DNA of 64,000 nucleotides from an uncultured virus (IMG/VR IMGVR_UViG_3300037792_000004). Its lineage: Duplodnaviria; Heunggongvirae; Uroviricota; Caudoviricetes. The notes under the pieces were generated by a model, which saw nothing but the letters and a program-made list of their open reading frames with translations, had not been told where the DNA came from and made no database searches. The DNA is taken from IMG/VR virus record IMGVR_UViG_3300037792_000004; one strand, given 5' to 3'. Of this stretch, positions 20,998 to 52,146 are shown in pieces. Position 1 is the first letter of the stretch, and each line of letters begins with the position of its first letter. The position numbers and the translations under genes are program-made.

Positions 20998-20999
20998 GG

Positions 21000-21634: not shown

Positions 21635-21635
21635 C

Positions 21636-23345: not shown

Positions 23346-23352
23346 AGAGGTT

Positions 23353-23784: not shown

Positions 23785-23787
23785 TCC

Positions 23788-24411: not shown

Positions 24412-24414
24412 GCT

Positions 24415-24666: not shown

Positions 24667-24667
24667 G

Positions 24668-24919: not shown

Positions 24920-24920
24920 C

Positions 24921-25067: not shown

Positions 25068-25068
25068 C

Positions 25069-25728: not shown

Positions 25729-25729
25729 T

Positions 25730-26137: not shown

Positions 26138-26400
26138 GCCACACCCCCGTCGCTGGATGGAACTGGACGAAGTTTTGCTTTGGGAAACGGAATGACGTTT
26201 TCAGCACTCAGATCCACAACGACACTGTCGGTCGGGAAGGGGATGATGGCGGGCTTGGCCTCCATCCCTTGGGCGCGTTCAGCGGCTTCCAGAAGCCTTT
26301 CACCAAGGCGTTTGGTGAATTCTTGCAACCGATCATGTTCTTGTGTTTGTGCTGCCGTGAAGCACATGTAGCCATATTGGACGAGGTCGGTGCTAAGCAT
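26134..26400 (-). CDS. Hypothetical protein
   Basis: 88 aa coupled ORF. Confidence 0.55.
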   Translation of the reverse strand: MLSTDLVQYGYMCFTAAQTQEHDRLQEFTKRLGERLLEAAERAQGMEAKPAIIPFPTDSVVVDLSAENVIPFPKAKLRPVPSSDGGVA

Positions 26401-26782
26401 CCCTGCCTCCTGTGTTCTTCAAGCGGGAGTGCGGGCAACCATTTCTGCAAGCCCGGTAAAGACGGGTCCGGATGGAGTTGGTGTGCGCGCGCTTTGCAGC
26501 TTGATGTCGGAGGCATTGATCCCGGCCGATATCACCGACAACAGGGCAATTGACGGTTTCGTGCATCAACGCCCCGCGGACCGTTTCCTCTATCTTTCCG
26601 AGGTCGCCACGGTATTTGTTGTTGATCGTGTTGCTGACGGCTGCGCCGGAGTAATTGAGGCGTTCAGCGCAGACGTTCAGCCCTTGGTGTGTTGCAAGTC
26701 GCGCCAGCTCTTCAACCCAATCAGGGACATTGCCGTTCCAGGCGATTTGAGCCTTTTCCAGCATGGTGGGTTTCTGGTTCAT
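26393..26782 (-). CDS. HTH protein with Cys-rich C-terminus
   Basis: AERLNYSGAAVSNTINNKYRGD; CPVVG...C...CRNGCPHS. Confidence 0.75.
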   Translation of the reverse strand: MNQKPTMLEKAQIAWNGNVPDWVEELARLATHQGLNVCAERLNYSGAAVSNTINNKYRGDLGKIEETVRGALMHETVNCPVVGDIGRDQCLRHQAAKRAHTNSIRTRLYRACRNGCPHSRLKNTGGRDA

Positions 26783-27420
26783 GCTGCGCACTCCTCAGCA
26801 ACCGGCTTGCCGAAAATGCGCCCTTTGTTAACGTCATAGACCACCTTTGTTTTCAGGATACGCGGGGCCTCCGGACCGGTGTTCATAGAGGGTTTAAGTC
26901 GCCAAATTGCCGGATTGCGGGAGCGGCTGGCGCGCAGTTCCTGAATGTACCCGGCATTCATCAAGTGTTGGATGTAGGTCGCAGCTGTATGGATACTGAT
27001 AGGCAAGACATCTGTGGCAGCTGAGATCGCCAGATCGTGCTTTGTGAACCGGCTCATGCAGCGCATTGCCGTCCACATATTGGCGTTTTTTTCGCCCTGT
27101 TGCCCGGTCGTGCCATCACGGTTCACGATGGGCGTTTTGGTCGGCCTGCTAAGCAGGCGGTAGACGTTGTGTTTGACGGAACCGCCGCGCTTGGTCGGAG
27201 CGTTGAAAGTGCGCGTCACCTCGACAATCTGCGCCTTGATCAATCGCTGTAGAAAGTCACCGATCGATTTGTCGCGCGGATCGTTGGAACGGCTCGCGAT
27301 CTCGGCGAGCGTGAACTCTGCACTGTCTTTGCCAAGGTCTCGCATCACGCTCCAGTAGTGATCGTGACCGCGATAGACCGGTGTCCCAGGGGTGACTTGC
27401 AATTCGAGTTGGATGGACAT
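26779..27420 (-). CDS. Putative winged-helix DNA-binding protein
   Basis: NMWTAMR...TYIQHLMNAGYI...NTGPEAP...VYDVN; follows B. Confidence 0.7.
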   Translation of the reverse strand: MSIQLELQVTPGTPVYRGHDHYWSVMRDLGKDSAEFTLAEIASRSNDPRDKSIGDFLQRLIKAQIVEVTRTFNAPTKRGGSVKHNVYRLLSRPTKTPIVNRDGTTGQQGEKNANMWTAMRCMSRFTKHDLAISAATDVLPISIHTAATYIQHLMNAGYIQELRASRSRNPAIWRLKPSMNTGPEAPRILKTKVVYDVNKGRIFGKPVAEECAA

Positions 27421-28175
27421 TACGCAGCCCTCCGAACACGGTGCCGACGGGCTTGGCCGGTTGCAAAGAAGCTGTCGTCAAAATGCTCCGCTGATAGTTT
27501 CTTCGTGCCGGTGTTTTGAGCATATGCGAGGATCTGATTGAAGTTGACGACAAGAAGACGCGCTTTGCCACGAGTACGTTCAACCGTCAGGTCGATCAGC
27601 TCGTCGGATACATTGAGGCCAGGGCAGTAAAGATCCGCCAACTTGCGGGCGTCTCCGTGGTCGCAGGCCTCTGCCTGTACCCAACTCAAAACGCGATTGT
27701 GGAACCGTTCAACCTTCTCAAGTTTTTCAGGTAGCAGCTCTTCGCCAATCATCATGATGGGGACTTGGCTGTGTTCGTAGATCTCGCGCACCAGCTCCAA
27801 CATGCCCTTGTCAGCGAGCTTGTCCGCTTCGTCTATGAACAATGGGCGATTGGGATCGTCAGCCAGAACTGCGATAGCCTCTTCAGTGAGGTCTGCGATG
27901 GTGCGTTGACGGGGTTCAATTCCGGCTTCGCGCAAGAGCATTTGCAGGAATTTCTTCTTCGTCCAGCTGTCGCCGACTTCAAGTCTGAGCGCCCGTGTCT
28001 TGTTTTGGGCATAGATCGAGGCCTGTGTTTTCCCGAGGCCGGAATGACCGTGAAAAACCCCGATCCCCGGCAGGCCGATTGGGCGATGTATGAGGGTGTT
28101 GGCCAACGTCAAGAACCTTGCGACGTTCCTAAGGTTGGCCAATCCGCCATTGACACTTGTGCTTCTATTCGTCAT
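27420..28175 (-). CDS. MuB-like AAA+ transposition ATPase
   Basis: GHSGLGKT Walker A, LFIDEAD Walker B; immediately after the transposase. Confidence 0.93.
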   Translation of the reverse strand: MTNRSTSVNGGLANLRNVARFLTLANTLIHRPIGLPGIGVFHGHSGLGKTQASIYAQNKTRALRLEVGDSWTKKKFLQMLLREAGIEPRQRTIADLTEEAIAVLADDPNRPLFIDEADKLADKGMLELVREIYEHSQVPIMMIGEELLPEKLEKVERFHNRVLSWVQAEACDHGDARKLADLYCPGLNVSDELIDLTVERTRGKARLLVVNFNQILAYAQNTGTKKLSAEHFDDSFFATGQARRHRVRRAA

Positions 28176-28207
28176 GGTTTGGGTCCATTAGTTTTGTCTG
28201 ACTTTCT

Positions 28208-28237
28208 CAGCCTCAGAAGTTGCAGCTTCTGAGGCTG
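28208..28237 (-). terminator. Strong hairpin between transposase and ATPase genes
   Basis: CAGCCTCAGAAG-6 nt-CTTCTGAGGCTG perfect 12-bp stem. Confidence 0.5.
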
Positions 28238-28247
28238 TTTCTTTGCC

Positions 28248-30407
28248 CTAAGACGCGGGCGGCACTTGTTCCGAACGCTCAAAGTCCTCGTGGATCATGT
28301 TGAGTGCCCGGTATTCAGCACCGGCTTGATAGCCGGTCAGCCAGAGCGCATCGGCGTCAGCCAATGGGTTGCCCGTGGCAATACGCTGTTCCAACCTCTT
28401 GGCTCGGTTGAAACGATCTTCGGGGGTGTCTTGGTTCGGCAGGCGCTTGACGTTCACCGGCTGTGCGGGACCGGCTTCCAGCTGCTCCATGACCTTGCGT
28501 TCGGCATCTGTGAGCGGTTTCGGCGTACGCTTTGCCTTGACCGTCGCAGCGGCTTGCATCTTGCTGGTCTCATACTTTTCAGTAGGTTTTGGAAAGCTGA
28601 CCAGCGTGGCATTATGAACATGTGCTGATCGTTGTGCGTCTGCCACTGTGCGCGGTGTGATCCTGCGTTTCTCCCTGCGGATTTCGACCAGCCGTTCTTC
28701 TTCGATCGCTTTCTGTTTTGCGCGAACCTTTTGGATGGTCTCTGCAGGATCCAAGCCCGCCAGATGTGGATTAACCGCTTCCCCGAGATAGGTTTCGCCG
28801 TCCGGATCAAATAACCACAAGCGGCCAAGATCATCGGGATCATGCCGGGCAAGGATCATCGTGCCGGGCAAAACGTCTCCGGTGTAGAAATACTCGCCGT
28901 CCACCCGGACGCCCTGTTTGGTGACTTTGCGCAAACCGTCTTGGCCAGCGATAGGCGCTAGGAGCACATTGAGCGCTTTGGGATCGTTGATCGCTTGGAT
29001 AGGGCCTGTGTAAGCCTGGGCTACCTCAAACGGTGTCTTGCGTTTCAGTCCCTCATGCGGGGTATGGGCATAGCGCTCTTCAGCCCACTTGTCTGCGCGC
29101 TCTTGAAGGTCCTTGGCGGTCAGCTCAACATTGAAAAGCTTAGCGTCATCGGTTCCAAGACGGGCCGAAAATGATTTGCGCGCTTCAATGACCTTGCGGT
29201 CAGAAACTGAGTGCCCAATGAAGCCCGGTTGGACCGCTGCGAAGTCCCTTTGAAACGTGCCAATGACGCGCTCAACAGTGCCTTTTTGCTCGGGGCTGTA
29301 AGGCGAAGATAGATCGTGTTCAATTCCGAGCGCATCCAACAACCGGACGATGGACTTTGCCTTAAAGTCCGAGCCGTTATCACTCTTGATAGTTTCAGGA
29401 ACGCCCCAGGCGAGTATCCCTTTTCTGATCAGCAACCCGACCGCATCGGCCCGAGGTGTTTTGGTAACGAGAATGATCACGCGCCGGGAATAAAGATCAA
29501 TCGCCGCGTATATGTTCATACGCCCGTCAACCGTCATGACATCGGACGGGGAGGCGTCGATCTCCCACTTCTGATTAAGGCGCTCCATTCGGTTTGCACC
29601 GCTGGCAACAAACCGGACCTTGGATTTGTAGGCGTCCGGGTCCGTTATCTTGAGGAGCACGTTTGCGTCCTCTTTAAGCCAGTTTTTAAGAGCGTTTTGA
29701 AACGTCCTTAAAGCGGGCATCGGGACACGTTCTGTTCGGCCCTTGCGCTTTACGCTGACCATTGAACCAAACTCTTTTTCCGCTGCATCAAGGATATGCT
29801 GAGCGCTGAAAAACTGGTTTGAAGCATAGACCGCAAGACAATAGGCCCGGAGCCTTCCGTCTTCGGCTCTGTCAAGCACACCGGTACCCTTGCGGGCATT
29901 GGCGGGATCATAGGCTAGGCGGTTCAGATCTTTGCGGGCATCACTGCGCCAGCGGTGCATGGTGCGGGTGGAGATCTTCTTTACATGCTCAAGAACCCAT
30001 TCGGGGAGCGGCACCTTGCCGTCTTCAAACAGCTGGCAGAAGAGATGATCAGACCCCGACGCACCTAGGCCACTGGTCTTGCGGAAACGGTTCGCAACCT
30101 TAAGCAAGATCAACCGGGCATCGCGGGTGCTAAGTTCGCGGCGGTTCAATTCGTTGGTGGTTTCAGTTTCGTAGTCTTCGCGCTCAACCCGAACAAAGGT
30201 CCCGGCATATTCAAGGCGCTGTGCAAGCGGCAGGAGGTCGATATGGTATTCCATACCTCCGCCGCCCTCACGGCCCTCACGCTTGCGCGCTAGCTCGCTG
30301 GAGGCCCATTTTTCCCGGTCCGCAAATTTCTGGACGCCATATTTACTGGCGGGGAAGCCAACAAGCTTGAGGTCGGCGATCTCCTGAGCTGTGAGCCAGA
30401 GTTTCAT
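28248..30407 (-). CDS. MuA-like DDE transposase
   Basis: N-terminal HTH_Mu (WLTAQEIA), WEIDASPSD, SDNGSDF, KGTVER catalytic D-D-E, C-terminal RHDPDDLG. Confidence 0.96.
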   Translation of the reverse strand: MKLWLTAQEIADLKLVGFPASKYGVQKFADREKWASSELARKREGREGGGGMEYHIDLLPLAQRLEYAGTFVRVEREDYETETTNELNRRELSTRDARLILLKVANRFRKTSGLGASGSDHLFCQLFEDGKVPLPEWVLEHVKKISTRTMHRWRSDARKDLNRLAYDPANARKGTGVLDRAEDGRLRAYCLAVYASNQFFSAQHILDAAEKEFGSMVSVKRKGRTERVPMPALRTFQNALKNWLKEDANVLLKITDPDAYKSKVRFVASGANRMERLNQKWEIDASPSDVMTVDGRMNIYAAIDLYSRRVIILVTKTPRADAVGLLIRKGILAWGVPETIKSDNGSDFKAKSIVRLLDALGIEHDLSSPYSPEQKGTVERVIGTFQRDFAAVQPGFIGHSVSDRKVIEARKSFSARLGTDDAKLFNVELTAKDLQERADKWAEERYAHTPHEGLKRKTPFEVAQAYTGPIQAINDPKALNVLLAPIAGQDGLRKVTKQGVRVDGEYFYTGDVLPGTMILARHDPDDLGRLWLFDPDGETYLGEAVNPHLAGLDPAETIQKVRAKQKAIEEERLVEIRREKRRITPRTVADAQRSAHVHNATLVSFPKPTEKYETSKMQAAATVKAKRTPKPLTDAERKVMEQLEAGPAQPVNVKRLPNQDTPEDRFNRAKRLEQRIATGNPLADADALWLTGYQAGAEYRALNMIHEDFERSEQVPPAS

Positions 30408-30868
30408 AGCGCCCCCCGGATCTTCGCCTTGAGGGTTTTTTCCTGCTGTTCAAGCAGCTCTTTGCGGTCCTTGATAAAAGCCAGCGTAATGACGTTTTCA
30501 TACTTGGCCGGAACAACTTTCAGATCGAAGTGATCCGCCAAGAAGCCAAGTAGTTCTCTCTGTCCGGTGCCATGGATTAGAGCTACAAACCGTTCGACCG
30601 TGATGTTGTTGTCGGTCTTCGACTCACTGGCGTAGGCGTCGAGCGTTGCTGTGGTAACCTTGTGACCAAGGCGCTCGCTCATGGCGGCGGCGATTTCTTG
30701 GCGGCTTTTGCCGCAGTCCTTCAATGCCTTTGCAACCGCCCGACTGATGCGGGAAGAAAGGCGGTTACCTTGGATGGCATTGGGCTCAAAACCAACCGTC
30801 ACCTTGGGCGGGGTCCAGTTGAACAGATCCGGAGTGATCGTATCTTTGGGGGGGCGACCTCTACGCAT
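30404..30868 (-). CDS. Putative phage regulatory / DNA-binding protein
   Basis: SRQEIAAAMSERLG...LDAYASES; coupled to the transposase. Confidence 0.7.
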   Translation of the reverse strand: MRRGRPPKDTITPDLFNWTPPKVTVGFEPNAIQGNRLSSRISRAVAKALKDCGKSRQEIAAAMSERLGHKVTTATLDAYASESKTDNNITVERFVALIHGTGQRELLGFLADHFDLKVVPAKYENVITLAFIKDRKELLEQQEKTLKAKIRGAL

Positions 30869-31700
30869 CGAGCCAGCCCTCCCTCTGGACCAATTCAATG
30901 ATCTCTTTCTTGTGGGCGCGGAAGACGGTGAATTTGGCGGCTTTTGAAAGCTTTGGGAGGATGTCTCTTACCCGTTGAAGCTTTTTCTCACCGTCGCTTT
31001 CTGGCTTCTTGCCCGAGACCATGAACTTGGCATCGGCAATGGACCCGGCTTTTGGCTCTTGTCCAAGGACGAGGTCTAGAACCTTTGCCTGGGCAGTTGC
31101 ATCAAGTTCGGCGAGCGCCTTCAGATCGGACTGTTTCTCAGCAAAGGGTGTGCCCTTCAAAGCCTCGCGTGATGCTGGGGCAAGGCCTTCAAAAATCTGT
31201 ACTGCGAGTTCGACAGAACGGCGGGATAGCCCTGTGGTGTCGGCAGCGTTTTGGCAAAACGCAAAAATTGCGACTTGATCTTCAGTCTTCTTTTTTGCGG
31301 CGTGGCTTTTCCGATCCCCGCCATGTTTTGTTTGCGGGTGAAGTGTCTGATAAACGCGCTTCAACTCCGTGAGCGCCTCACAGCGTTCCAGCGCGTTGAA
31401 GTTCTTCCGGCCAAGATTTTCGAGGATCTCATGCAGCCGCATTTCTTCGGCTGGTTGATCGGTGGCCGGGACCAATATGCGGCAGCTGATTTGTTTCCAG
31501 TTCAGGATCTTTGCCGCTTCAAGGCGATGCCCGCCCGCAACCAAGCGGAACCGATCCCCGGTGACTTCCACATCTATGGGTGTTTTGTGGCCTGTCTCTT
31601 TGAACATACCGGCTAGGGTCTTTGCCCAATCCGGATCAATGTCACGCAAGCGACCGGCAGGAATATCGATTAGGTCAATTTTGATCTTTTTGTCGGCCAT
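30861..31700 (-). CDS. ParB N-terminal domain protein
   Basis: LVAGGHRLEAA, ENLGR, HGGDRKS, HTH. Confidence 0.9.
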   Translation of the reverse strand: MADKKIKIDLIDIPAGRLRDIDPDWAKTLAGMFKETGHKTPIDVEVTGDRFRLVAGGHRLEAAKILNWKQISCRILVPATDQPAEEMRLHEILENLGRKNFNALERCEALTELKRVYQTLHPQTKHGGDRKSHAAKKKTEDQVAIFAFCQNAADTTGLSRRSVELAVQIFEGLAPASREALKGTPFAEKQSDLKALAELDATAQAKVLDLVLGQEPKAGSIADAKFMVSGKKPESDGEKKLQRVRDILPKLSKAAKFTVFRAHKKEIIELVQREGWLDA

Positions 31701-31832
31701 GTGAAATACCTTTCAAAGCCGTTGAAAAGACCGGGCGGCAGGAGCGACCCGTAAGTCCGCCCGGTAAGTTTTAGGGAGGATGTGACGTCCATCTCAGGAC
31801 GCCCCAAAAAGCGGCAGCGCCGCATCCCACCA

Positions 31833-32147
31833 CTACGCAGGTGGCGCGTTTCCCGGCTCTTGCGGATGTGCGGTGCAAGGTCCGGAAACCAGATGTTTTG
31901 ATAGGGTTGAAACTTCCCAAGGTGCTCCGCCGATGCCGCAGTTGTTCAGCAACCTTGCTAGAGCTGCCGGGAGCGGACGGCTGATGTACCCGTACGCCTC
32001 TTTCGGCGAGTGGCTTGTCTGAGCAACCAACACGACATCGCCTGACGCTGTTTCGCTGGGGTTCAGCTCGCCAGTGAAGAAATATCGCCGACCAGAGGCC
32101 GAAACCTTTGTCAGGATAAATTCAGTGGGGAGACAAAAGGCTGTCAT
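31833..32147 (-). CDS. Hypothetical protein
   Basis: 104 aa starting directly after the ner stop. Confidence 0.5.
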   Translation of the reverse strand: MTAFCLPTEFILTKVSASGRRYFFTGELNPSETASGDVVLVAQTSHSPKEAYGYISRPLPAALARLLNNCGIGGAPWEVSTLSKHLVSGPCTAHPQEPGNAPPA

Positions 32148-32459
32148 TTAAGCCGCCTTTTTGTCTGGCGCAGCTGTGGCTTTTTGCCTAGCGCGCTGAC
32201 CATCGTGTTTGCTAGAAAGGATCTTGGCAGTCCGCTTCGGATAGCGGTCCTTGAAAAGGACTTCTTTCGGAATGCCGAGAAATTCGGCTATTGCCTGTTC
32301 GGCGGGTGCAGTGTGACGTTTCCAAACGTGCGAGAATGCACTGGGCGTCCTGCCTTTTGATCTGGCAAGTTGTGCCAGTGTCATGCCTCGACGATGGAGC
32401 TCAGCTTTGATCGAATGCTGATCCCAGTCGTCTTTTGGTACCTGTTTGGTCGTTGCCAT
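32148..32459 (-). CDS. ner: Ner-like (Cro-equivalent) regulator
   Basis: WDQHSIKAELHRRGMTLAQLA...EQAIAEFLG...LFKDRY; divergent from the repressor. Confidence 0.88.
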   Translation of the reverse strand: MATTKQVPKDDWDQHSIKAELHRRGMTLAQLARSKGRTPSAFSHVWKRHTAPAEQAIAEFLGIPKEVLFKDRYPKRTAKILSSKHDGQRARQKATAAPDKKAA

Positions 32460-32559
32460 CGGGTGCCTTTCTGGAAGGCGGCTTGTTGCAGCAAGCCGCT
32501 TTCTTTGGACTTGGTTTGTAAACAAAACGGCTCAACATGTTGGTCCGTTAAGATGGGAG

Positions 32560-32610
32560 TTTACATAAAATTTGGATTTATTCAACGGATAAATCCGAAA
32601 ATAATGTAAA
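32560..32610. promoter_or_regulatory. Immunity-region inverted repeat (operator / divergent promoters)
   Basis: TTTACATAAAATTTGGATTTAT-7 nt-ATAAATCCGAAAATAATGTAAA, AT-rich, between ner and c. Confidence 0.65.
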
Positions 32611-32616
32611 TAGGAA

Positions 32617-33084
32617 ATGGCCAGACCAGCAAAGCCAAAAACCGATATAGCTAAAAGACTTATAGAGTTTCGAGGGGGAATTAGTCGGGACGATTTTGCT
32701 CAGTCTGTTGAGGTAATACCCGGAACTTATGCAAATTATGAAAGAGGCGACTCTGAGCCCAACAGTGTCGTTCTACAAAAGTTGGCTAGTGTGCACGGCA
32801 TGAATATTCACTGGCTAATGACAGGAACCGGCTCAATGCGTGTCGGTGAAGGTGTCAAAGTAGATGACACCAACATGGCGCATGTCAGGAAAGTAGTGCA
32901 GAACATCGCCTACTTCACCGCAGGGCAAGGCCTGCGACGAATGAAACCCGATGCATATTCAGAACACTTTTTAGAGCTGTTCGACTACCTTATGACGCTC
33001 GACGACTATGACGAAAAGTCTGCTGAGAAGGTGATTGAATTTGGCTCTGAACGACTGAAGCGAGCATTCGGTCAAGCCGACTAA
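32617..33084 (+). CDS. Prophage repressor (XRE HTH)
   Basis: SRDDFAQSVEVIPGTYANYERGDSEP...NIHWLMTGTG; divergent from ner. Confidence 0.88.
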   Translation: MARPAKPKTDIAKRLIEFRGGISRDDFAQSVEVIPGTYANYERGDSEPNSVVLQKLASVHGMNIHWLMTGTGSMRVGEGVKVDDTNMAHVRKVVQNIAYFTAGQGLRRMKPDAYSEHFLELFDYLMTLDDYDEKSAEKVIEFGSERLKRAFGQAD

Positions 33085-33598
33085 CCAGATCGTGGTAAGG
33101 CGGGCTTTCGTAGCCGATTTCAGGTATGTTGTAGCCGACTATCGTCCGCGATCTATAGACTGAGGCGCGCCAACCCAACGCGGTGTAAAAACGCCGATAC
33201 GGGTTCTCACGAAATGCCCAAATGCATGCAGGCCACAAGTCCCGTTCAAACATGCTTGTCGCCAGTCCTCGCATTAGGGCAGGACCACTCATTCCGCCGC
33301 GAAATTCTGGCAGGATGTAACCCGCATGCATCTCTCCAACCGCTGGAATGTCGGAGTCGTGATTTGGCTTGGACAGAGCGAAACCAACAACTGATTGATC
33401 GTTGGTTAGGACCAATAGTGTTTCATCGTCCGGTTGCTCTTCAAACCATCGTTGCCACTGCTTCAAACGAAAGTGACGAGACCTGGCTTGATGCACTTCC
33501 TCAGGCATAAAAGAGTAGACTTCGCGCCAGCAAAGGCTATGTATCTCAGAAATTGTATCTGCGTCAGAATGTATACCATTACGAATATTCATTGACAT
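32990..33598 (-). CDS. GNAT family N-acetyltransferase
   Basis: VVGFA, YILPEFRGGMSG (motif A), WAFRENPYRRFYTALGW (motif B). Confidence 0.88.
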   Translation of the reverse strand: MSMNIRNGIHSDADTISEIHSLCWREVYSFMPEEVHQARSRHFRLKQWQRWFEEQPDDETLLVLTNDQSVVGFALSKPNHDSDIPAVGEMHAGYILPEFRGGMSGPALMRGLATSMFERDLWPACIWAFRENPYRRFYTALGWRASVYRSRTIVGYNIPEIGYESPPYHDLVSRLDRMLASVVQSQIQSPSQQTFRHSRRAS

Positions 33599-33652
33599 GA
33601 AATAGCTCCTAGGTTGTAGTCACTTACCACTACCATCAGAAGCTATTCATCA

Positions 33653-34030
33653 ATGATTGACCAGCATTTTCAAAACGCCCTAATGAGTGTGAATACCCAA
33701 AAGAGAGTTTGGATCAAACGCATCTCTTTGCTTGCGATCATTATAGCAGCGGCCTTCGTCGGCTTGGTGTCTGCCGGGCATCTTCAGACGATGAGTACGC
33801 AATCAAAATTGGATGATGAAGCTTTAGGGAAGCTTGCAGCCTTCGCTGCCTGCAGCTCCGGTCAATTGCCCACAGTCGAGTGGGACCGAGCCCAAAAAAG
33901 TGTGTCTATGTTTGAATACCTTTTTGGACAGTCGCGCCTTGCAATGGCTCACTACTTTTTAACGATCATCGACACTCGTAAGTGCACTGGAGCGCAGACC
34001 GCGCGCGCCCAAAACCACAACCGGGTATAG
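33653..34030 (+). CDS. Small single-pass membrane protein, unknown function
   Basis: 125 aa; KRISLLAIIIAAAFVGLV TM; two Cys in the extracytoplasmic part. Confidence 0.65.
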   Translation: MIDQHFQNALMSVNTQKRVWIKRISLLAIIIAAAFVGLVSAGHLQTMSTQSKLDDEALGKLAAFAACSSGQLPTVEWDRAQKSVSMFEYLFGQSRLAMAHYFLTIIDTRKCTGAQTARAQNHNRV

Positions 34031-34714
34031 TTCTGAACGTCGCCAAGCAATGATCGATTCCGTCTTGCTAAAGAGGGTGGTCGAATTTCCCTCAATGCTT
34101 TTATTTATCAACGGTAAGCTCAACACGTGGTTCGGAATATCCGCAGCTGGCGGAAACGAGGCAATAATCGAGCCGTCTTCACGCATCAGTGCAGAAACAC
34201 AATCAAAGCATCGCCCCTCTTCGTGAATAAGGAAATGCGGAGATACGATTGCAGCTATGACGTAGTCACCGACTTGCTTTGATACTGGCAAAAAAGGGAC
34301 GCCCGAAGTTCGTCCCTTTTGCGTGGCCCCAATGTGCAGACCAAGTCTCGATCGGGCTGCAATGACATACTCTCTGTCACCCAAGTGAAGTGTCGGCGTA
34401 GGATACGTGTAACTATCAACAGCAAGGTTGCCTAACCCATTGATTGCAATAACCGCGCGCACGCCTGGTAGGCGTTCAGCTATCTCGCGGAATTCCTCAT
34501 GGATAACTCGATCATTGTTAGTGATCTTTAGGGCATATCCCGCTGTGTCTAAGGCGTGGTCTATGGCCAACAGAACCCGTTCTGCCGAAAGACGATTTAA
34601 AGCGACCGTAGTGCGCACCTCGCGCATCAATTCTTGTGGCACCACAGTTTGAGACAATGCCTCTCCGCTCAACGCAGCGAGACATGCAAAGAACAACCCG
34701 ATGATTTTTCGCAC
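33959..34714 (-). CDS. Stand-alone secreted Cache/PDC sensor-domain protein
   Basis: Signal peptide (RKIIGLFFACLAALSGEALS), LGDREY and GRTSGVPFLPVS dCache-like motifs; no second TM or output domain. Confidence 0.72.
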   Translation of the reverse strand: MRKIIGLFFACLAALSGEALSQTVVPQELMREVRTTVALNRLSAERVLLAIDHALDTAGYALKITNNDRVIHEEFREIAERLPGVRAVIAINGLGNLAVDSYTYPTPTLHLGDREYVIAARSRLGLHIGATQKGRTSGVPFLPVSKQVGDYVIAAIVSPHFLIHEEGRCFDCVSALMREDGSIIASFPPAADIPNHVLSLPLINKSIEGNSTTLFSKTESIIAWRRSELYPVVVLGARGLRSSALTSVDDR

Positions 34715-35007
34715 CAAAAAACCCTGTACTAGAAAAAGCACAAAATAACCCCGCGGTATGCACCGTATGGATAGGAACGTGAAACAACTGTGAAATGTAG
34801 CGGTAGCCTCAGATAGAAAGTTGCCACCTTAGCCGGACATCACTGCCGCCCAATCACGCTACCTCGGCGGAATTCTGCCAATGTGCTCTTGGTGGCAACT
34901 CCAGAGGAAAACACGGCTAGAGTTGCCACCTCGATTTTGCGCGCCTATTGTTTTCATTAAGTCTTTTCGTTTGGCAAAAATCTCCGCGCCGACTTTCCAG
35001 AGCCTTT

Positions 35008-35134
35008 GTGCCATATGAAGTTGCGCGGCTGTTTTTGTCGATGTCCCTCGTAAATGGCTTGTTTCCGCCAATTATCGGATATTCCCACTTAATCCCGGAT
35101 ATTGCCTTAGTGCCAAGTGTTCTTGCGCGTTACA
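35008..35134 (-). repeat. Left end (attL) of prophage A: terminal TGTAA plus sites L1 and L2
   Basis: GTGCCAAGTGTTCTTGCGCG (35110-35129) then TTACA; GTGCCATATGAAGTTGCGCG (35008-35027); 82-bp gap. Confidence 0.85.
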
Positions 35135-35178
35135 AGCGCGCAATTTCGTTTGGCAAATCGCGCAACTTCACTTGGCAC
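35135..35178 (+). repeat. Right end (attR) of prophage B: tandem sites R1 and R2, terminal TG missing
   Basis: CGCGCAATTTCGTTTGGCAA (35137-35156) and CGCGCAACTTCACTTGGCAC (35159-35178), inverted relative to L1/L2. Confidence 0.82.
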
Positions 35179-35271
35179 GTAGTTTGACCTGCGTTTTGGG
35201 CCCTAACGCTCCCTTCGTTGCCTAGAACTTTCGCCTGAAGATGGTTCGGTGTTGACAGTACAATTCTTCCA

Positions 35272-36279
35272 ATGGTTTCTGTTCATTTACATTTTAAAGA
35301 GTTACTTCCAAAACTATCTTCGGCGGCTAGCATAATGACAGATCAACAGAAAACTGGGCTTAGAGAAATTCTCGCGGCCGCCATTGAGGAAAAGGACAAA
35401 ACGACCGTTAAAGATCTAGTTTCCTTTGGCCGTTTTTGTGTTGAGGTAGGTCTTTACGATCCTTGGACACTCGAGCCTGGGGGCATGCAAAGCATCCGAG
35501 GCGGAACGGACTTGATACCCAAATATCCAAGATTCTATTGCCCCCACTGCAATGACTTCATGCCATGGCAGACGAGCGGATTAGGCGAAGCAAACGACAT
35601 TATAAACGCTCGAAGACTTGGCGGAGCGGCTAGTATCACTGCACCGTCAAGGCAGAGCGCCATCGTTGTTAATCCGGACGAGAACATAGGCATTAATTAT
35701 CACAATATTGAATGGGTCTGCCGCGGTAACCGAGATCACGTGTTCTCGGTCAACTTGCGGCTTGATGGAAGTACTATTCAAAAGGTTGGGCAATATCCAT
35801 CACACGCCGATTTCTCGATTGCAGAGTATGCTGAACTCAGCAATCAACTCGAAAAGGGTGATAGAAGAGAATTCAACAAAGCACTCGGCCTTTTTGCTCA
35901 TAAAGTCGGAATAGGATCGTTCGTATATCTGCGGAGAATTTTAGAAAACTTGGTTGAACGGCGCTTCCACGAACTCAAGGACAAAAACGAATGGGACGTC
36001 GATGAATTCCGCACCAAAAAAATGGATGATAAAGTCGCATTCCTAAAGGATTATCTACCCGACTACCTAGTCGAAAACAAAATCATATACGGTATTCTAA
36101 GTAAGGGTATCCACGAGTTGGAAGAGCCGATTTGCATTGGTGCGTTTCCGCTTCTTCGCGACGCGATCCTAACCATCCTGCGTGATGACGCCGTCCGGAA
36201 AGCAGAACTGAAGCAACGGAAACAGACCGCCAAGGATCTACAGGCACTTGCTGCTGTTGCGAAAAAGCCACCCAACTAG
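35272..36279 (+). CDS. Hypothetical protein: Zn-ribbon plus DUF4145/HEPN-like C-terminus (moron)
   Basis: CPHC; GSFVYLRRILE...LSKGIHEL; AT-richer, antisense to the phage late genes. Confidence 0.6.
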   Translation: MVSVHLHFKELLPKLSSAASIMTDQQKTGLREILAAAIEEKDKTTVKDLVSFGRFCVEVGLYDPWTLEPGGMQSIRGGTDLIPKYPRFYCPHCNDFMPWQTSGLGEANDIINARRLGGAASITAPSRQSAIVVNPDENIGINYHNIEWVCRGNRDHVFSVNLRLDGSTIQKVGQYPSHADFSIAEYAELSNQLEKGDRREFNKALGLFAHKVGIGSFVYLRRILENLVERRFHELKDKNEWDVDEFRTKKMDDKVAFLKDYLPDYLVENKIIYGILSKGIHELEEPICIGAFPLLRDAILTILRDDAVRKAELKQRKQTAKDLQALAAVAKKPPN

Positions 36280-36413
36280 GCTGCGAACTCCTAATTAGTA
36301 CATCCCCTGCTGGGCGGTTTACCTCGAACACGCGCTATGCCTTGTTTAATTGTGCGAAACCGGTGGAAATGGTCCGGTTGGGCATTTGGTTTTGGCGGAG
36401 GGAGTTCAGGTGG

Positions 36414-36614
36414 TTACAACCGCTCTGACCGTTTCGTCAGGCTCGCCCGCCAATCACCATCAAATCCAAATGTCGGAGCGGGCTTTGGTTCTTGAAACCA
36501 AAAGTCAGTGAAGGCGGCGACATCGGGACAGCAAAACCAGTGTGCTGAGCCATCCGCATCGATCGCCCACCACACTGCATTTTTCGGAGCCTGTTTCCAG
36601 TCGACCTCACCCAT
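36414..36614 (-). CDS. Small Trp-rich phage protein
   Basis: 66 aa VDWKQAPKNAVWWAIDADG...WRASLTKR after the MTase. Confidence 0.7.
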   Translation of the reverse strand: MGEVDWKQAPKNAVWWAIDADGSAHWFCCPDVAAFTDFWFQEPKPAPTFGFDGDWRASLTKRSERL

Positions 36615-36642
36615 GTTTTTCCGCCGCCGTACTGACCGTGAA

Positions 36643-37620
36643 TTAAGGCATTAAACCGGTATTAATCGGCCTTGAAAAGGCCTCTACAAAATAGGCAGCC
36701 TTGAGAGTTCGGTATGCATAAGCTGCCGCCAGAGGGACAACTCCGTTACCGGCTGCGCGGGATCGCTCCACCCGATAGGCCAACCCATCATCCAGTCCGA
36801 AAAGTTCGGGTTGAAGGTCCAGTCGCCGGGACAGGTGCGTGTCCCAGGCTTCAAGGTCACATGGAGGGGGCGCGAAGATGGGTAGACTGATGTCCGTGCC
36901 GGTTTCAGGCCGGTGGCCTTCATCAGTTCCCAAAACACCGTCCAAACGCGCGCTGTGTTGCCGAGACTGTGCTGGCTTCCAACCTGATCGATTGCCGGCC
37001 GGAACCGGAACCCGTCCTGACTGATCAGAATGTCGGTCCGGTTGCAATAAAGGCTGGTTGTCGGCGTGGGCCAGAATGAAGAGCCTTTTCCGGATATGGG
37101 ACGCGCCGACTTCAGCCGCTGAGAACAAGCCCGCTTTAACGCTGTAACCCAGCTCCGATAAGTCTCCGGCAACCTCTTCAAATCCACGGTCCAAATGTCC
37201 TTCGACGTTTTCGCAGAAGACCCATTCAGGTCCACATTCGCCGATGATCCGGGCGACGTCCGGCCACAGGTGCCGCGGATCGTCGCGCCCGCGGCGCAAA
37301 CCGCTGGACGAAAACGGCTGGCAGGGATATCCGGCAGTGAGGATATGAAGTTTGCCGCGCCACAGGCGGCCGTCGAAGGACTTAACATCAGACCATAAAG
37401 GCGCGTTATCCAGGGCCTTGTCTTCCATCCGCGCCACGAGGGTGGCCGCAGCGCAGGCTTCTCGCTCAACATAACAAACAGTTCGATATCCGGGTTCGGC
37501 AATATGGAGGCCAAGCTCCAGTCCGCCAACGCCGGTGCAAAGGGACAGTCCGTTAAGCCGCTGAGGGCTTGTTTCGGGATATACAGCCACAAGAGTTTTC
37601 TCCTTGGGGATCACGCTCAT
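36643..37620 (-). CDS. C5 cytosine DNA methyltransferase, catalytic (alpha) polypeptide
   Basis: Motif I SLCTGVGG, IV GYPCQPFS, VI ENV, VIII HIRKR, X GNGVVP; motif IX not seen in this frame. Confidence 0.93.
   Translation of the reverse strand: MSVIPKEKTLVAVYPETSPQRLNGLSLCTGVGGLELGLHIAEPGYRTVCYVEREACAAATLVARMEDKALDNAPLWSDVKSFDGRLWRGKLHILTAGYPCQPFSSSGLRRGRDDPRHLWPDVARIIGECGPEWVFCENVEGHLDRGFEEVAGDLSELGYSVKAGLFSAAEVGASHIRKRLFILAHADNQPLLQPDRHSDQSGRVPVPAGNRSGWKPAQSRQHSARLDGVLGTDEGHRPETGTDISLPIFAPPPCDLEAWDTHLSRRLDLQPELFGLDDGLAYRVERSRAAGNGVVPLAAAYAYRTLKAAYFVEAFSRPINTGLMP
36684..37592 (-). CDS. Nested alternative-frame ORF, putative beta polypeptide of the MTase
   Basis: 302 codons open inside the MTase; WPTP and motif IX-like FNPNFSDWMMGWPIGWSD; TTG start 7 nt after AAGGAG. 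Confidence 0.72.
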   Translation of the reverse strand: MWLYIPKQALSGLTDCPFAPALADWSLASILPNPDIELFVMLSEKPALRPPSWRGWKTRPWITRLYGLMLSPSTAACGAANFISSLPDIPASRFRPAVCAAGATIRGTCGRTSPGSSANVDLNGSSAKTSKDIWTVDLKRLPETYRSWVTALKRACSQRLKSARPISGKGSSFWPTPTTSLYCNRTDILISQDGFRFRPAIDQVGSQHSLGNTARVWTVFWELMKATGLKPARTSVYPSSRPLHVTLKPGTRTCPGDWTFNPNFSDWMMGWPIGWSDPAQPVTELSLWRQLMHTELSRLPIL

Positions 37621-37801
37621 TGACCGGCTTGCCGGGGCGTTCGGAGACAGGCTCTGTTGGCTCTTGGGGGATGGGCTCTAGGGGCCTCAAACTGGTCAGT
37701 GTTCCGCAGCGCGGACACTTGATTTCAACTGGACCGATTATCGCGTTTTTTGCCGACTTCATCAAGAGACGGCGGCAACTCCCGCATCGTATTTCTTCCA
37801 T
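37553..37801 (-). CDS. com: Mu Com-like zinc-finger translational regulator
   Basis: MEEIRCGSCRRLL...EIKCPRCGTL; overlaps the MTase start as com overlaps mom in Mu. Confidence 0.88.
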   Translation of the reverse strand: MEEIRCGSCRRLLMKSAKNAIIGPVEIKCPRCGTLTSLRPLEPIPQEPTEPVSERPGKPVNERDPQGENSCGCISRNKPSAA

Positions 37802-37988
37802 GACAACCCTAGGACGACTCAGCCACACTGTCGGCGCTCGCGCGAGCAAAGCGGGTGCGGCGGTTATCTAAGGTGACTGCTGGGCGGGTTCTTGGTTTGG
37901 CGATCAGGCCCGCCGTCCGGATTTCGGTCCGGACCACCTGTCAGGGATCGAACAAGACTGTATTGAAGTTCCTGTCGGAGAAAGCGAA

Positions 37989-39212
37989 ATGACAACCAAA
38001 CGGCCAGTATGGCTTAATTGGTCGCAAGTTAAACGCCGTCCGACGGTTGTTGCCCGGCTTTCCTTTAGTCGGCTGGTCTGCTCTGTCGTGGCGTTGTGGA
38101 GGTGGATTGCTTCTGTGGGAGAGGTCGGCTGGCGAAACGCGACTATCGCTCTCACGATCATGGCTGTGCTGGGCTATTTGTTTGCTTGGAGCTACATTTT
38201 TCACGGTCCGGTGAGTGTCGAACTTGCGAAGGATCAATTCGTTTTTGGACCCGACGTAAGAGCACGTGCCGTAACGCCTGTGCTTTTGGGGCTGGCCGGT
38301 TTTGTTACTTTGGTTGCAACGCTTTGGCGTGGAACGATTTCTGAGCGACAAACAGAAGAGCAGACACGTCAAAATGACAGCAAAGAAGAAGCTGATCTCG
38401 GATTGCTTCTCGAGAAGGGGCACGAGCACACAGCGAAGGGTAAAGTGGATGACATCGCGCTCGGTATCGCAATGCTGGAGACCGTCGCACAGGCAAAAAA
38501 CGATAAGTACGCATCTTATGCTCTCTATGTGATCGGGAGCCAGTTGGAGCCGTGTTTCCAGATGTCGGGCACCGATAGGGACCGAATTTACATACAAATC
38601 AGGGCGGTATTCCAACGCATCGCCGGTGACAAAGAGAAAAGCATGCGCCGACCGAACACCAGGCTTAAGGTAGATGCTGGCCATTACGATCAATACGGCG
38701 TGTTGGCGGAACAACACTCGAGAGTAATTTCGTTGTTCAAGCATATACCGACATGCTCGATCGCGAATGGTCAACTGATTATCGACACAGACGTACTTGC
38801 AATACTCAACGACGATATAACCGACTTTTCCTTGCAGAATTGTCGTATTGTCCCGGTTTCGCAGGATGGATTCGGTCTTTTTTCGGGCGGCGGGCCACTT
38901 GAGATAAACAAGGTTGCCAGCAAACGATATGCAAATTGTCAGATTGAGGGTTTTGCTGTTCGGGAAATCGGCGATGCGTTCATGTTTAGTGACGGCTCTC
39001 CCCAAACAACATTTATCTCCTGCAACCTCACGAACACGAATCTCGCATCCCGTGCAATTCTTGAGTCGTGTAAGTTTAGGAACTGCTACTTCCATAGCGA
39101 TGACGCGCCCTACATCGAGGGCCCGGAAGGGCCTGAAAAGTTTGATCGCGAAATTCTGGCCGAGTATGGCATCACATCCCGACCGACGTTATTGAATGCG
39201 TTCCCGACCTAG
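37989..39212 (+). CDS. Membrane-anchored hypothetical protein with degenerate pentapeptide-like C-terminus (moron)
   Basis: Two TM segments, GIAMLETVA helix, FISCNLTNTNL...FRNCYF; antisense to tail genes. Confidence 0.65.
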   Translation: MTTKRPVWLNWSQVKRRPTVVARLSFSRLVCSVVALWRWIASVGEVGWRNATIALTIMAVLGYLFAWSYIFHGPVSVELAKDQFVFGPDVRARAVTPVLLGLAGFVTLVATLWRGTISERQTEEQTRQNDSKEEADLGLLLEKGHEHTAKGKVDDIALGIAMLETVAQAKNDKYASYALYVIGSQLEPCFQMSGTDRDRIYIQIRAVFQRIAGDKEKSMRRPNTRLKVDAGHYDQYGVLAEQHSRVISLFKHIPTCSIANGQLIIDTDVLAILNDDITDFSLQNCRIVPVSQDGFGLFSGGGPLEINKVASKRYANCQIEGFAVREIGDAFMFSDGSPQTTFISCNLTNTNLASRAILESCKFRNCYFHSDDAPYIEGPEGPEKFDREILAEYGITSRPTLLNAFPT

Positions 39213-39261
39213 TGTTTCGGTCGCCATCAGCATCTCGCGGGTTGCTGCCACTGCCCATTGG

Positions 39262-39987
39262 CTACCCCTGCGGCACCACCGGCATCAGATAATGCAGCAC
39301 CACTTTCACTGCTCCGCCTGTAAAATTCCCGCCGTTCGCGCTCAAGCGCACAGCCGTGTCTGAATAAAACGCCTGGGGCCCGATCACGCCGGCATTGGTG
39401 GAGCCTTCCGCAATCCCGAGCGATCCGCCGAACTTGGACGTTTCACCAGAGATCCCGCAGTTATAGGACGTTGCCCCGATAATGGCTGCCGTTGTCCTTG
39501 TTGACACGCACCAGACGACGGCCCGGTTTGGAATGACGATAGAGGTGTTGACACTCGCGCCGCTCAAGCCCGTCAGGTCCTCTTCTACAGTGCACATCCG
39601 GCTTTCGGCGCCGGACGGCGTTTGTGAGACCGTAGCGACTTGAGATAGCAGGGCGCCGTAGTTGGCCCAGCCGGAACCGGTGTAAACGGCGAGCGTTCCC
39701 TCATCGGCAAGGAAGGCAATCAGGCCCAGGACCGGCGCCAGGAACGCCCAGGCCCCATCGGCGTAGTGCGCGATCTGGCCGTCCTGGCCTATCCAGTCGC
39801 CGGTTCCACCTGTTGCGACCAGGTAGCTGTCGCCGTCCGTGGCGGCCGGCGGTGCGGTCAAATCCCGGGCGAGGATTGTGAGATGTGCCAGAGCATCGAG
39901 CCTTGCCAAAGCCTCATTGTGCGTGACTTCCTTCTGCGCCTGGCTTGAGGCAATGAAGGGCAGCTTCAGGCGCGCCGTTGTGCTCAT
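39262..39987 (-). CDS. DUF2793 domain tail fibre/spike protein
   Basis: LPFIASSQAQKEVTHNEALARLD...GDWIGQDGQIA signature. Confidence 0.88.
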   Translation of the reverse strand: MSTTARLKLPFIASSQAQKEVTHNEALARLDALAHLTILARDLTAPPAATDGDSYLVATGGTGDWIGQDGQIAHYADGAWAFLAPVLGLIAFLADEGTLAVYTGSGWANYGALLSQVATVSQTPSGAESRMCTVEEDLTGLSGASVNTSIVIPNRAVVWCVSTRTTAAIIGATSYNCGISGETSKFGGSLGIAEGSTNAGVIGPQAFYSDTAVRLSANGGNFTGGAVKVVLHYLMPVVPQG

Positions 39988-42900
39988 AAGATTTCCTCCG
40001 TGGGAATGCCCCGGCCGATCGTTCCGGAGACTTGGAAAATACGAACCTGAACCGACACCTGGACACTGCCGAAGTCCGCCACCTGGTCGGTCGCCGTGTA
40101 GGTGTGGCTGGGCGCTGTCAGTCCGGTGATGGTCCGCACAACAGTAGATCCGGATAGGATCTCGACGTCATAACGCTCGCTGTCTTCATGAAGCGGGACA
40201 TCCGAGCCGTTCGCCCATGTTCCATTGCGCCGTGTGCGCCGGATCCAGGTTATGCTGAGGTTTCCCGCAAGATCCCGCCGCCCGCGCAGATGGACCGGCG
40301 CAAACGGCTTGAGAGCCACCGCTTCAAAGGTGTTTGAACGGCTTTTAAATGCGGTGTCGGTCGACGGAAGCGGAGACGGGCCATACTCCCAAGTCCGGAG
40401 CACACCGCGATCCGACAACGGCACATCGGCCTGTGTCAGCGCGCCATCCATCAAAACTACGCGGCTTCCGGTTGCTACAGGATCGCGCATGGCGTATTCC
40501 GTGCCGCGGCGCCCGCGCAACAAGGTGGAAAGCCGCCAGGTTTGCGGTCCAATCAGCTCGGCGGTGGCAAACTGCAGGATCTCCCAATCGCCATCGCCGT
40601 TCCGGATCGCAAGGGCATTCCCCGGTCCCGCCAGCAACGTGTCCTCAGACACGGATGACAGCGTTCCCTGGGCGAGTTTGACCGTTACGGAATTTGCCCG
40701 GTCAAAGCGGTACGGTGTTCCGGCATAAAGATTAGTCGTGGTTAGCCCCAAGGTTGCCGGGGCAACCACTTGGCCGATGATCCGGTTTCCTTCCAGCACG
40801 GTGACGCCCGCCCAGGGCTCGGCAAACCCGGCGAGCCAGGGCTGATGTTGCGTCTGGCCCTCGCTGATCACCGGCAGGTCCAGCACCTCCAGCACAACCT
40901 CGCCATAGGTCGGGATCGGAGACGGTGGTGCGGGTGGCGGCGGATCCGTCCGGGTGGAGCGGTAGCGTTCTGTCTCGACCGAGACCGCTTCGCACTGCCG
41001 TGCCCCGCCATCGATGATCCGGGTAAGCCGCATGTCGCGGGCTCTGCCTGCAATGCCGATCGAGATAACATCGGCCGGATCAAACCGGATCAGGGAGGGC
41101 GGCAGAGCAAAACTCGCCTGTTCGCGCTCCGTCCATTGCCCATAAAGCCAGTCCTCGATCATGCCCCCGGCAACGCCGGGATCAATGACCGCGGGCACCG
41201 ACAGCCGCGTCACCCGGTCGGACGTGGTGGTCAGCCGTCCCGCAGCCGAACTCGTCTGGCGGTAGTCGCTCTCTGCATCCCAATAGACCAATAATGCCCG
41301 CAGAGGCAGATCGGTTTCCTGGGCCCGGGTGATCGACCAGTCGGGTTTTTCGCGGTCGGGCGCTGCCAGATCCTTTTCCTCAATCGCACCTTCCGGTGCC
41401 AGGCCGCGCGGGATGAACTTGATCAGGCCTTCGCTTTCCACCGCATCGAAGCGGTAGAGCTCGGCCAGCACCTCGATCTGGTCGCGCGGCGAAGCCAGAT
41501 CCGGCCGCAGCCAGCCCGTCACCGTCGCTTCCAGCAACGAAACATCGACGGCCGTAAAGCCGACCTGCGCGCAGATGTGTTTGATGAGATCGGCGAGCTC
41601 TACAACGCCGAACTTGCCCTGCACCCAATGGCCATAGGGCCAGTTGTTCCCATCCGACCAGACGCTCAGATAATAGGGAAACGAGGGATAGGGCCGCGCG
41701 TCCCAGGTCCAGAGATGGCTGCGTGCCAGATCCAGCATCGGCCCGCCATAAACGCTGGAGACCGGGTTGTTGCCTTTCGCCGGATCCCAATAGGCGAGCA
41801 GCGCCTGGATGCCGCGCCGTTGAATGAAGTCGTCCCGTTCCTCCGCCGAATAATAAGGCCAGGCACTTTCCGAGGATTTTGGATCGACAAAGACATTCGG
41901 CTGGTTGGTGGCCTTGTCGACAGACGGAAACCCGTATTCGGTGAAGAGGATCGGTTTCGACTGCGGCATCCAGCCTGTCGGAGATCCGCTCTCGATACCG
42001 CCCGGCCGGTCATAATGCTGATGGAGCCACCAGTTCCGAAAGTCCTTGGTCCGGTAGACCCAGGGTTTTCCGGATCCGTCCGTGATCGGCGTGCGGATCT
42101 GGGCATCGCGGTCGCCCGGACTGGCATAATACCAGTCATAATCCTCGCCGCCTTCGACGTTGCCGGTGAGGTAGGCCTTGGAATAGATCGATTTGGTGCC
42201 ATCCAGAAAATCGAGATGCGTCCGGCCGTCGCGCCAGTCCGACAGTTTCATGTAATTGTCGATGGAAACCGCATCGATCGACGGGGAGCTCCACAGCGGA
42301 TCCAGGTGGAAGAAGAAGTCTCCGGATCCATCGGCCGGGTCATGGCCGCGATATTCTGTCCAATCGGCGGCATAAGTGATGTCGACGGTGCTGCCCAAAA
42401 TGGATTTGCAGTCGCTTGCCAGACTGACCAGATGGCTCACCGCCGGATAGGTTGAGGATGAACTCCGGGTCTGCGTCAGGCCGACCATTTCCGAGCCAAT
42501 GACAAAGGTGCTGACCGCGCCGGGATCAATGGCATTCACGGCGGCGCAGAGTTTGGCGTAATGCAGCACCATGCGCCGCAAGGACCATTCCGCGGGGCCG
42601 GAATAACCGCAGGCCACCGCATCCGTCGCAACGTCCACCGACAGGCTGATGTGCCCCGGCATCGCCGTCCCGAACAGCGCATCGACCTGAGCACCGGCGG
42701 CTGCCGTCTTGTCGACACTGCCCGGCTGCCCGGCCGCCGGCATGCAGGTGATGCGTCCGCGCCAGGGATAGGTTGCCTGTTCCGCCGCCCCATAAGGATC
42801 GGGCAAACCATTGCCGGGCGGCACATCCATCAGGATGAAGGGATAGAAGATCACATCATAGCCGCGGGCCTTCAGATCCCGGATCGCTTGCACCACGGTC

Positions 42901-43934: not shown

Positions 43935-44494
43935 TAGGTTCTCCTCACGGGCGCACCGCCCTTCGGGCTGCCCTCCAGAGGGGGCGGGCCATCAGGCCCG
44001 GCGGCCGCTTGGCCTTGCGGCACCGGTGGTGCCGGGTTCATGCCTATTCCCGGAAAAGAGAACGCAAAGCGGATTTTTCTGCGCCAGCCGTCAAACAACG
44101 CCACCTCGGCCACGGGCAGGTTCTCATGGGCATGGAGGATCTTGGGCGCGGGATCCTTAATCGCGGTGGTCAGCAGCGCGCAGTGTTTGGCCGGCAACTC
44201 CGGTTTAAACGCGAACATCAGAACGTCGCCCGGTCCGGCCTCCTCCACGGCGATTGGCACCAGATGCCGGGCGGCCGCGTCTCGCAAGGTCTCGGCCCGG
44301 TGGCGCTCCGCCCAGTCGGGCGTATAGGGCGGCGGCGTTTCCGGTTCTAACCCATACAGATCCCGCCAGACACCGCGCAGGAGGCCGAGGCAATCGCAGC
44401 CGGCGCCCTTGCAGCTCGCCTGATGCACATACGGCGTGCCGATCCAAGATCGGGCCGTTGCAACGATATCGGTGCGGGTGACCGGAACGCTCAT
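43934..44494 (-). CDS. NlpC/P60 cell-wall peptidase (RcGTA g14-like)
   Basis: ARSWIGTPYVHQAS...GCDCLGLLRGVWR...KHCA. Confidence 0.93.
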   Translation of the reverse strand: MSVPVTRTDIVATARSWIGTPYVHQASCKGAGCDCLGLLRGVWRDLYGLEPETPPPYTPDWAERHRAETLRDAAARHLVPIAVEEAGPGDVLMFAFKPELPAKHCALLTTAIKDPAPKILHAHENLPVAEVALFDGWRRKIRFAFSFPGIGMNPAPPVPQGQAAAGPDGPPPLEGSPKGGAPVRRT

Positions 44495-45998: not shown

Positions 45999-46002
45999 GG
46001 CG

Positions 46003-52144: not shown

Positions 52145-52146
52145 AG

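Follow-up and report, generated by a model that had tools for sequence, protein, structure and literature searches.

How did the left (L) end of one Mu-like phage come to be joined directly to the right (R) end of another? This question is raised by a window of 64,000 nucleotides, which represents nearly the whole of a 64,353-bp virus record and starts at the record's first base. Gene content assigns positions 1..35134 (minus strand) to prophage A, a Mu-like myophage whose L end lies at 35134 and whose R end lies to the left of the record. The remainder (35135..64000, minus strand) holds only the late region of prophage B, with a Mu-like head and a GTA-type tail; the record does not extend to B's early region and L end. 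On the minus strand, A encodes a repressor, ner, a ParB-like gene, a DDE transposase (28248..30407; phrog_310; Pfam rve and Mu-transpos_C), a MuB-like AAA+ ATPase of 251 aa (27420..28175; AAA_22), Mu head genes, and a contractile tail. The family match of the ATPase is the phage DNA-transposition protein phrog_296, and the protein is 90% identical to the B protein of a tRNA-adjacent prophage in genome G095. Directly after it lies the gene for a predicted tandem winged-helix protein of 213 aa (26779..27420, minus strand). Both prophages carry gpT, the I protease, and gp36; the portal was found in A, and com (37553-37849) in B, which also carries a C5 methylase (36643-37620). A DDE transposase followed by an AAA+ B protein was found in A only, B's early region being outside the record. 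The earlier note had read the locus as a fusion of two different Mu-like prophages, and the gene content agrees, since B is a siphophage with its own capsid, 45% identical to that of A.

Among isolates, those closest to A by transposase are Rhodobacter phage RC1 and Rhodovulum phage RS1 (41.5%). A's early proteins have their nearest homologs in Roseibium/Labrenzia, and thus the host is probably a member of that group. In sequencing runs X1-X3 we also observed a second, diverged transposase copy (27961-30277) and an additional near-identical L end whose flank differs (35134), indicating that the host has at least one more related element or that these pieces are B's own early region.

Four exact copies of KTGCCA-N7-TTGCGCG, at 35008-35027, 35110-35129, 35137-35156, and 35159-35178, are the sole exact matches in the window. 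By chance 0.01 would be expected, and four were reached in none of 100 shuffles, whereas with two mismatches the motif is unremarkable across the window (10 matches vs 6.8 expected). The second copy (minus strand) is L1 of A, a putative transposase-binding motif judged by its position and its conservation in relatives; the first (minus strand) is L2, which lies 82 bp inside L1 (35027 to 35110). The third and fourth copies (plus strand) are R1 and R2 of B. The four coordinates and the 82-bp separation, together with the spacer TTACAAG between L1 and R1, are as the earlier note had described them. A fifth site, an L3-like motif with an 8-nt spacer (34924..34943, minus strand), was absent from its list.

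Within the spacer, TTACA (35130..35134) is the intact L terminus of A, which reads 5'-TGTAA on the minus strand and has the same tip in relatives. The AG that follows (35135..35136, plus strand) is a remnant of B's tip. A scan for tandem R1-R2 motifs yielded 26 viral loci, of which 24 have the tip TGTAG and one has TATAG, the remaining one being the window junction. Given this consensus, B lacks its terminal TGT, so the earlier description of an L end joined to a clipped R end is supported. Repeated transposase motifs and 5'-TG termini are found at A's L end and at the R ends of the family, and B's R end lacks the TG. The position of A's terminus is fixed at 35134 by a second L-end copy in the contigs, whose flank departs exactly behind this base in 3 of 4 sequencing runs. 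The same junction is present in a second IMG/VR record (10,045 bp, 100%), which may derive from the same strain and may not be independent. Among the contig pieces listed, none spans the junction. Nevertheless, depth to the left and right of it is similar in three runs (1301/1209, 22.5/20.6, and 64.4/54.2), and only one loose end was seen behind 35134 despite the two L-end copies. We consider the junction well supported, short of proof by reads. Further inside A's L end, GTTGCCACC is present three times (34819-34829, 34891-34900 in inverted orientation, and 34921-34931), as possible half-sites or an operator.

Relatives of the two phages were sought with the end motif in 72 Roseibium genomes, allowing one mismatch, a setting at which degenerate ends are missed; the motif was found in 48. 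Seven internal or divergent sites mis-typed as ends, as well as sites with <250 nt of flank, were left out before counting, and the ends of G003:C11 and G001:C1 were taken from looser scans. The 83 R tips that remained after filtering correspond to 78 loci in 43 genomes, with serial tips within 200 bp merged. At 54 of the 78 loci, representing 37 of the 43 genomes, the R end lies within 200 nt downstream of a tRNA gene and always on the same strand (54/54). The random expectation is 0.07, given 52 tRNA genes per genome, and none of 32 L ends was near a tRNA. Of the other R loci, five lie behind an L end and 19 elsewhere; 7 of these 19 are 72-87 nt behind a displaced tRNA 3' fragment, compared with 1 of 32 L controls (at 4 nt). 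Neither a tRNA nor a fragment is nearby at 12 of the 78. The 54 tRNA-adjacent loci span 10 tRNA types and many positions, within one genus whose genomes are not independent of one another. Near-random prophage position, as for Mu itself, is not what this lineage displays.

The R ends face the 3' end of the tRNA, with distance peaks of 72-76 and 84-90 nt. These two main peaks held 29 of the 46 tips that lacked a displaced older tip and 10 of the 13 stacked tips, the other three stacked tips being at 97-101. The position of a stacked tip relative to the older one varied from 5 to 27 nt inside, with spacers of 2-50 bp for those outside. Because first and stacked tips share the same peaks while their offsets from a resident tip vary, the position of insertion follows the tRNA and not the resident end. 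With the long tRNA-Ser genes the distances from the 3' end are the same, which points to the 3' half of the tRNA as the anchor. The sequence GGTTCRARTCC is present in the T arm of all 9 tRNA types used at 60-200 nt and also in 17 of 34 unused types (p=0.006, for a motif chosen after seeing the used tRNAs). The distances are equally compatible with periods of 11-15 nt and so do not resolve a helical periodicity.

Outside Roseibium, the signal is weaker. In viral records, 12 of 71 R ends were tRNA-adjacent, and 7 of the other 59 lay behind tRNA fragments by a looser match. An Rfam search of 20 non-tRNA flanks revealed no other RNA family, and only one tRNA, 560 nt away. Two R ends (L186, in G077:C6, and L240) are exceptions to the usual peaks: they lie behind tRNA-Gly(ccc) at 2 and 38 nt, and this tRNA is without the T-arm motif.

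The earlier note had suggested that similar L/R junctions should be looked for in other genomes, and an orientation-neutral pattern for inverted ends retrieved 2 viral and 3 genome records, all of them L-to-R; no L-L or R-R inverted junction was obtained with this pattern from either set. The junctions found in this way have spacers of +6, +6, +9, -8, and, for the window junction, -3. Further junctions have spacers of +2, +8, +8, +19, and +50, and in one case the fusion point of an L end lies 10 bp within an R1 remnant. A displaced older tip was present at 13 of the 83 R tips, and every displaced tip found was an R tip. In a Roseibium MAG (G001), a displaced 8-nt tip plus GCAAG precedes the new R end. 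On another contig, an L end leads into GCAAG and then the remainder of R1, and the pairing of these two halves is inferred. With that proviso, insertion into a resident R end, as proposed for the window, does occur in the family.

Among 21 end pairings, the 5-bp duplications match in 11 and the other 10 share none, suggesting that rearrangement on the L side is common. In both arrays of G095, it is the tRNA-proximal element, the newcomer, that has the matching duplication. Both tandem elements of G025 have 5-bp duplications; a 6-bp duplication, considered because of the two 6-bp spacers, was ruled out, since this genome has two 5-bp duplications offset by one base. Tandem pairs are also present at sites without a nearby tRNA (G025, L013, and L288). 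Insertions stacked 0-50 bp from a resident end exist in this lineage, as cases of occurrence rather than a measure of cis immunity.

Other arrangements of the same ends were also observed. Elements of 2.4 to 15 kb lie between such ends at L180 (G069:C15), L012/L013, L119 (G025), and L206 (G095), three of them with matching 5-bp duplications; these are probably non-autonomous derivatives. Runs of two to four L ends in the same orientation and a few kb apart (L087 in G003:C3, L198 and L223 in G088:C2, L218 in G072:C1, and L221 in G048:C2) lie downstream of tRNA-adjacent R ends or tRNA genes and look like decayed arrays. At L119 1-1013 (G025), two elements one base apart occupy a non-tRNA site upstream of a gene that by eye resembles methionine aminopeptidase, a placement that suggests other anchors in other hosts.

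Taking these observations together, it is likely that A inserted by Mu-type transposition, at a distance set by a tRNA gene, where B already sat, and that A's L end was thereby joined to a clipped R end of B. For the window junction itself, the tRNA link is inferred from the relatives, as A's outer flank was not recovered. In the relatives, insertion produces a 5-bp duplication, the R end faces the 3' end of the tRNA from 72-76 or 84-90 nt, and later arrivals keep to these peaks whether they fall just outside the resident tip or within it, giving Tn7-like head-to-tail arrays. In the window, A would be the later arrival, and its unseen R end would lie ~70-120 nt behind a tRNA. The anchor would likely be the 3' half of the tRNA gene (the T-arm region), and a protein reading it on the DNA would set the position of the MuB/transposase complex. 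This explanation is supported by A's transposase, which groups (100/99, in a 17-row tree) with prophages behind tRNA-Gln(ttg) in G095 and tRNA-Arg(acg) in G052, and by B's late genes and com/methylase, which match tRNA-adjacent elements. The displaced-tip pattern predicted for A's R flank gave 0 matches in metagenome_contigs and viral_contigs, an absence that is uninformative. A pattern for the start of the window likewise gave 0 matches in metagenome_contigs, and in viral_contigs it found two relatives, both of which end short of the R end.

Mu-type transposases need the terminal dinucleotide, as established for Mu. Whichever way the last step took place, B's terminal TG is lost, and B is likely grounded, that is, no longer able to transpose on its own. 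Newcomers could in this manner ground resident prophages by clipping their R ends. A composite element bounded by the outer ends, which the earlier note had raised, is possible in principle, at about twice the length of a phage genome.

Insertion at a tRNA-set distance could have led to the present junction in two ways. In the first, A inserted directly 3 bp inside B's tip, and by our estimate this would be modestly favored. In the second, which we regard as a realistic but lesser possibility, A inserted at a normal central-A/T target beside or overlapping B's tip, and the imperfect L-R palindrome formed there then lost its center, for example through a deletion between two AG dinucleotides, so that TTACA-AG was left. 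The 5-mer that follows A's L end is AGCGC, which the earlier note had predicted as the duplication and which has a central C. Of 116 flanking 5-mers in Roseibium, 112 have a central A/T (80/83 at R ends and 32/33 at L ends), and therefore direct insertion at +3 would be an uncommon event. A deletion would account for this atypical target and is also consistent with the 5 of 33 L flanks that begin with AG, with the existing junctions that have spacers of 2, 6, 6, 8, 8, and 9 bp, and with the long hairpin into which the window junction folds (-21.3 kcal/mol, no shuffle control). However, it requires a second event that spared A's terminal CA exactly, the six short-spacer junctions persist unaltered, and targets with a central C/G do occur, both in Roseibium (4/116) and in viral records (17/83).

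Another explanation is that the machinery of A recognizes the end of a resident phage through the motif common to both and inserts a short distance away. IS911, IS30, and IS21 undergo end-targeted insertion of this sort, at a short fixed offset from the target end, and the earlier note had drawn this parallel. Displaced older tips at R ends and the tandem pairs at sites without a nearby tRNA, along with the shared motif, could be taken in this sense. Nevertheless, we consider it unlikely. First arrivals lie at the same tRNA distances as stacked ones, and the offsets from resident tips (+5 to +27 inside, 2-50 bp outside) are not fixed. In addition, all the displaced tips found were R tips, and the junction pattern gave neither L-L nor R-R inverted junctions. 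With Mu, MuA bound to an end is reported to repel insertion, not to attract it (PMC7350765). One element's end is joined next to another's, as with IS911/IS30/IS21, but offsets in this lineage vary widely and position follows the tRNA. Of the earlier interpretation, the geometry of the junction, the clipped R end, and insertion into resident R ends stand, but end targeting as their cause is not supported.

Rearrangement, either as an adjacent deletion running from A's L end or as a circular L-R junction recombined into a resident prophage, could also fuse two ends. The frequent pairings without a shared duplication (10/21) and the common orphan L ends are in keeping with it, as is G034, in which an L end is fused to an R1 remnant with no outer partner and no displaced tip in that genome. 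Yet landing exactly at B's tip would still need a targeting rule, and the arrays with matching duplications represent simple sequential insertion, which makes a rearrangement very unlikely as the source of the window junction.

We also considered that insertion is random and that survival is limited to prophages in the neutral zone downstream of tRNA genes, with the junction as a by-product. Regions downstream of tRNA genes are known hot spots for islands (PMC7344871), and our sample consists of surviving prophages only. But neutrality leaves unexplained the single orientation (54/54), the absence of L ends (0/32), peaks only 5-7 bp wide, and repeat insertions within 30 bp, and we find this account highly improbable. 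Finally, an assembly chimera is barely credible, since the lack of a bridging contig among the pieces listed and a second record that may be the same strain are outweighed by a join with no sequence overlap for an assembler to collapse, similar depth on both sides in three runs, the one loose end behind 35134 for two L-end copies, and recurrence of this junction type in other genomes.

If insertion at a tRNA-set distance is correct, some protein would be expected to read the tRNA gene. No TniQ/TnsD or TnsA family match was obtained among A's early ORFs. The 213-aa protein that follows the B gene is homologous to D3112 orf8 and is predicted to be a tandem winged helix (pLDDT 82.5). By sequence it has no match to a solved structure, and in the structure search the model gave only generic winged-helix matches (Z up to 8.8). 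The top Foldseek match, human TFIIIC (E 1.5e-4, TM 0.25, rmsd 16), was treated as generic because cullin winged helices score alike and TFIIIC is outside the top 50 in both VIA searches. The gene occupies what we take to be the operon position of tniQ. It is also found in relatives that are not at tRNAs. The protein is our tentative candidate for the target selector. One could speculate further, with a greater measure of doubt, that it forms part of a compact, RNA-free module, in which the tandem winged-helix protein would read the T arm of many tRNA genes and place a MuB filament whose length is set; lysogenic integration would then be orientation-fixed at 72-90 nt, and lytic copies would go elsewhere. 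Such a module would be the Mu-branch counterpart of TniQ, and diverging versions of it might explain why D3112-type phages have REP-anchored hot spots and why Citromicrobium phiA targets a single gene.

Mu is the textbook example of a random, self-immune transposon. Phage A and its relatives resemble Mu and Mu-like phages in having a DDE transposase and an AAA+ B protein, TG...CA ends, repeated binding motifs, 5-bp duplications (observed in the relatives), Mu head genes, and com. In contrast to the random positions described for Mu-like prophages of E. coli (PMC3603311), the prophages of this lineage are linked to tRNA genes and share a single orientation. Their target 5-mer has a central A/T instead of the central C/G of CYSRG/NYSRN. 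They also stack as close as 0-50 bp to a resident end. Mu, by comparison, shows cis immunity over 1.5 kb or more, and its insertions are reported to spare both mature tRNA sequence and DNA adjoining its ends (PMC7350765).

A bias in insertion site has already been published for Mu-like phages of Citromicrobium and Pseudomonas, although without a mechanism. In Citromicrobium, the Mu-like phiA occupies a 40-bp zone in 24 strains and phiB has six hot spots (PMC12486242). Like our lineage, these are alphaproteobacterial Mu-like phages with site-biased integrative transposition, but the target of phiA is a hypothetical gene, and the text of that report covered here states no tRNA anchor, orientation rule, or stacking. 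The Pseudomonas phages Ab30 and 2P1 have hot spots 55-61 bp to one side of a conserved palindromic motif (PMC5977238). They share with our lineage a fixed distance from an anchor, and D3112-type phages carry a homolog of the 213-aa gene; their anchor, however, is REP/BIME, it accounts for 5% of replicative events, and it shows no bias in orientation (PMC5977238). In the openly accessible literature searched, we found no report of tRNA-anchored, orientation-fixed insertion by a Mu-like phage.

The closest parallel in target choice is with Tn7-like transposons that have TniQ/TnsD, including the tRNA-homing CAST I-B2/I-D, which insert at a set distance from a recognized gene (PMC10293859, PMC11014353). 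As in those elements, distance and orientation to the attachment gene are fixed (in the relatives) and the AAA+ ATPase is related to MuB. Unlike them, these are complete phages in the Mu branch that use many tRNA types, with several distance peaks at 72-90 nt rather than about 30-33 nt. A is thus a Mu-like phage that works like a Tn7 element in target choice, not a demonstrated member of the Tn7 group. A natural Mu-like lineage whose members lie behind many tRNA genes, at a set distance and in one orientation, and build arrays of unrelated phages there, would bring target selection of the Tn7 kind into the Mu branch. With a candidate gene and an anchor motif named, the lineage offers a direct test of how site-biased integration by Mu-like phages works and, possibly, a safe-site integration tool for alphaproteobacteria.

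Apart from the junction, both prophages have slots that hold cargo. B contains a low-GC block (47000-54460) between the tail chaperone genes and a short tape measure gene. The 324-aa product of the latter had been suspected of being truncated, but the ORF that begins in the same way in a relative encodes 350 aa, so B is not shown to be defective at this gene. The block encodes an Mrr-like nuclease (48730-49704), SLATT_5 (53727-54374), and unmatched ORFs of 470, 792, 280, and 175 aa. In the related element L082 the same slot holds different ORFs (373 and 597 aa), suggesting, from gene content, a hot spot for defense cargo. In each of the two phages, a further cargo slot immediately precedes the I protease gene (14966-15901 in A and 60805-63930 in B), and it holds AbiTii in A and, in B, a pentapeptide-repeat protein (below all NCBIfam cut-offs) together with a DitB-like ORF.
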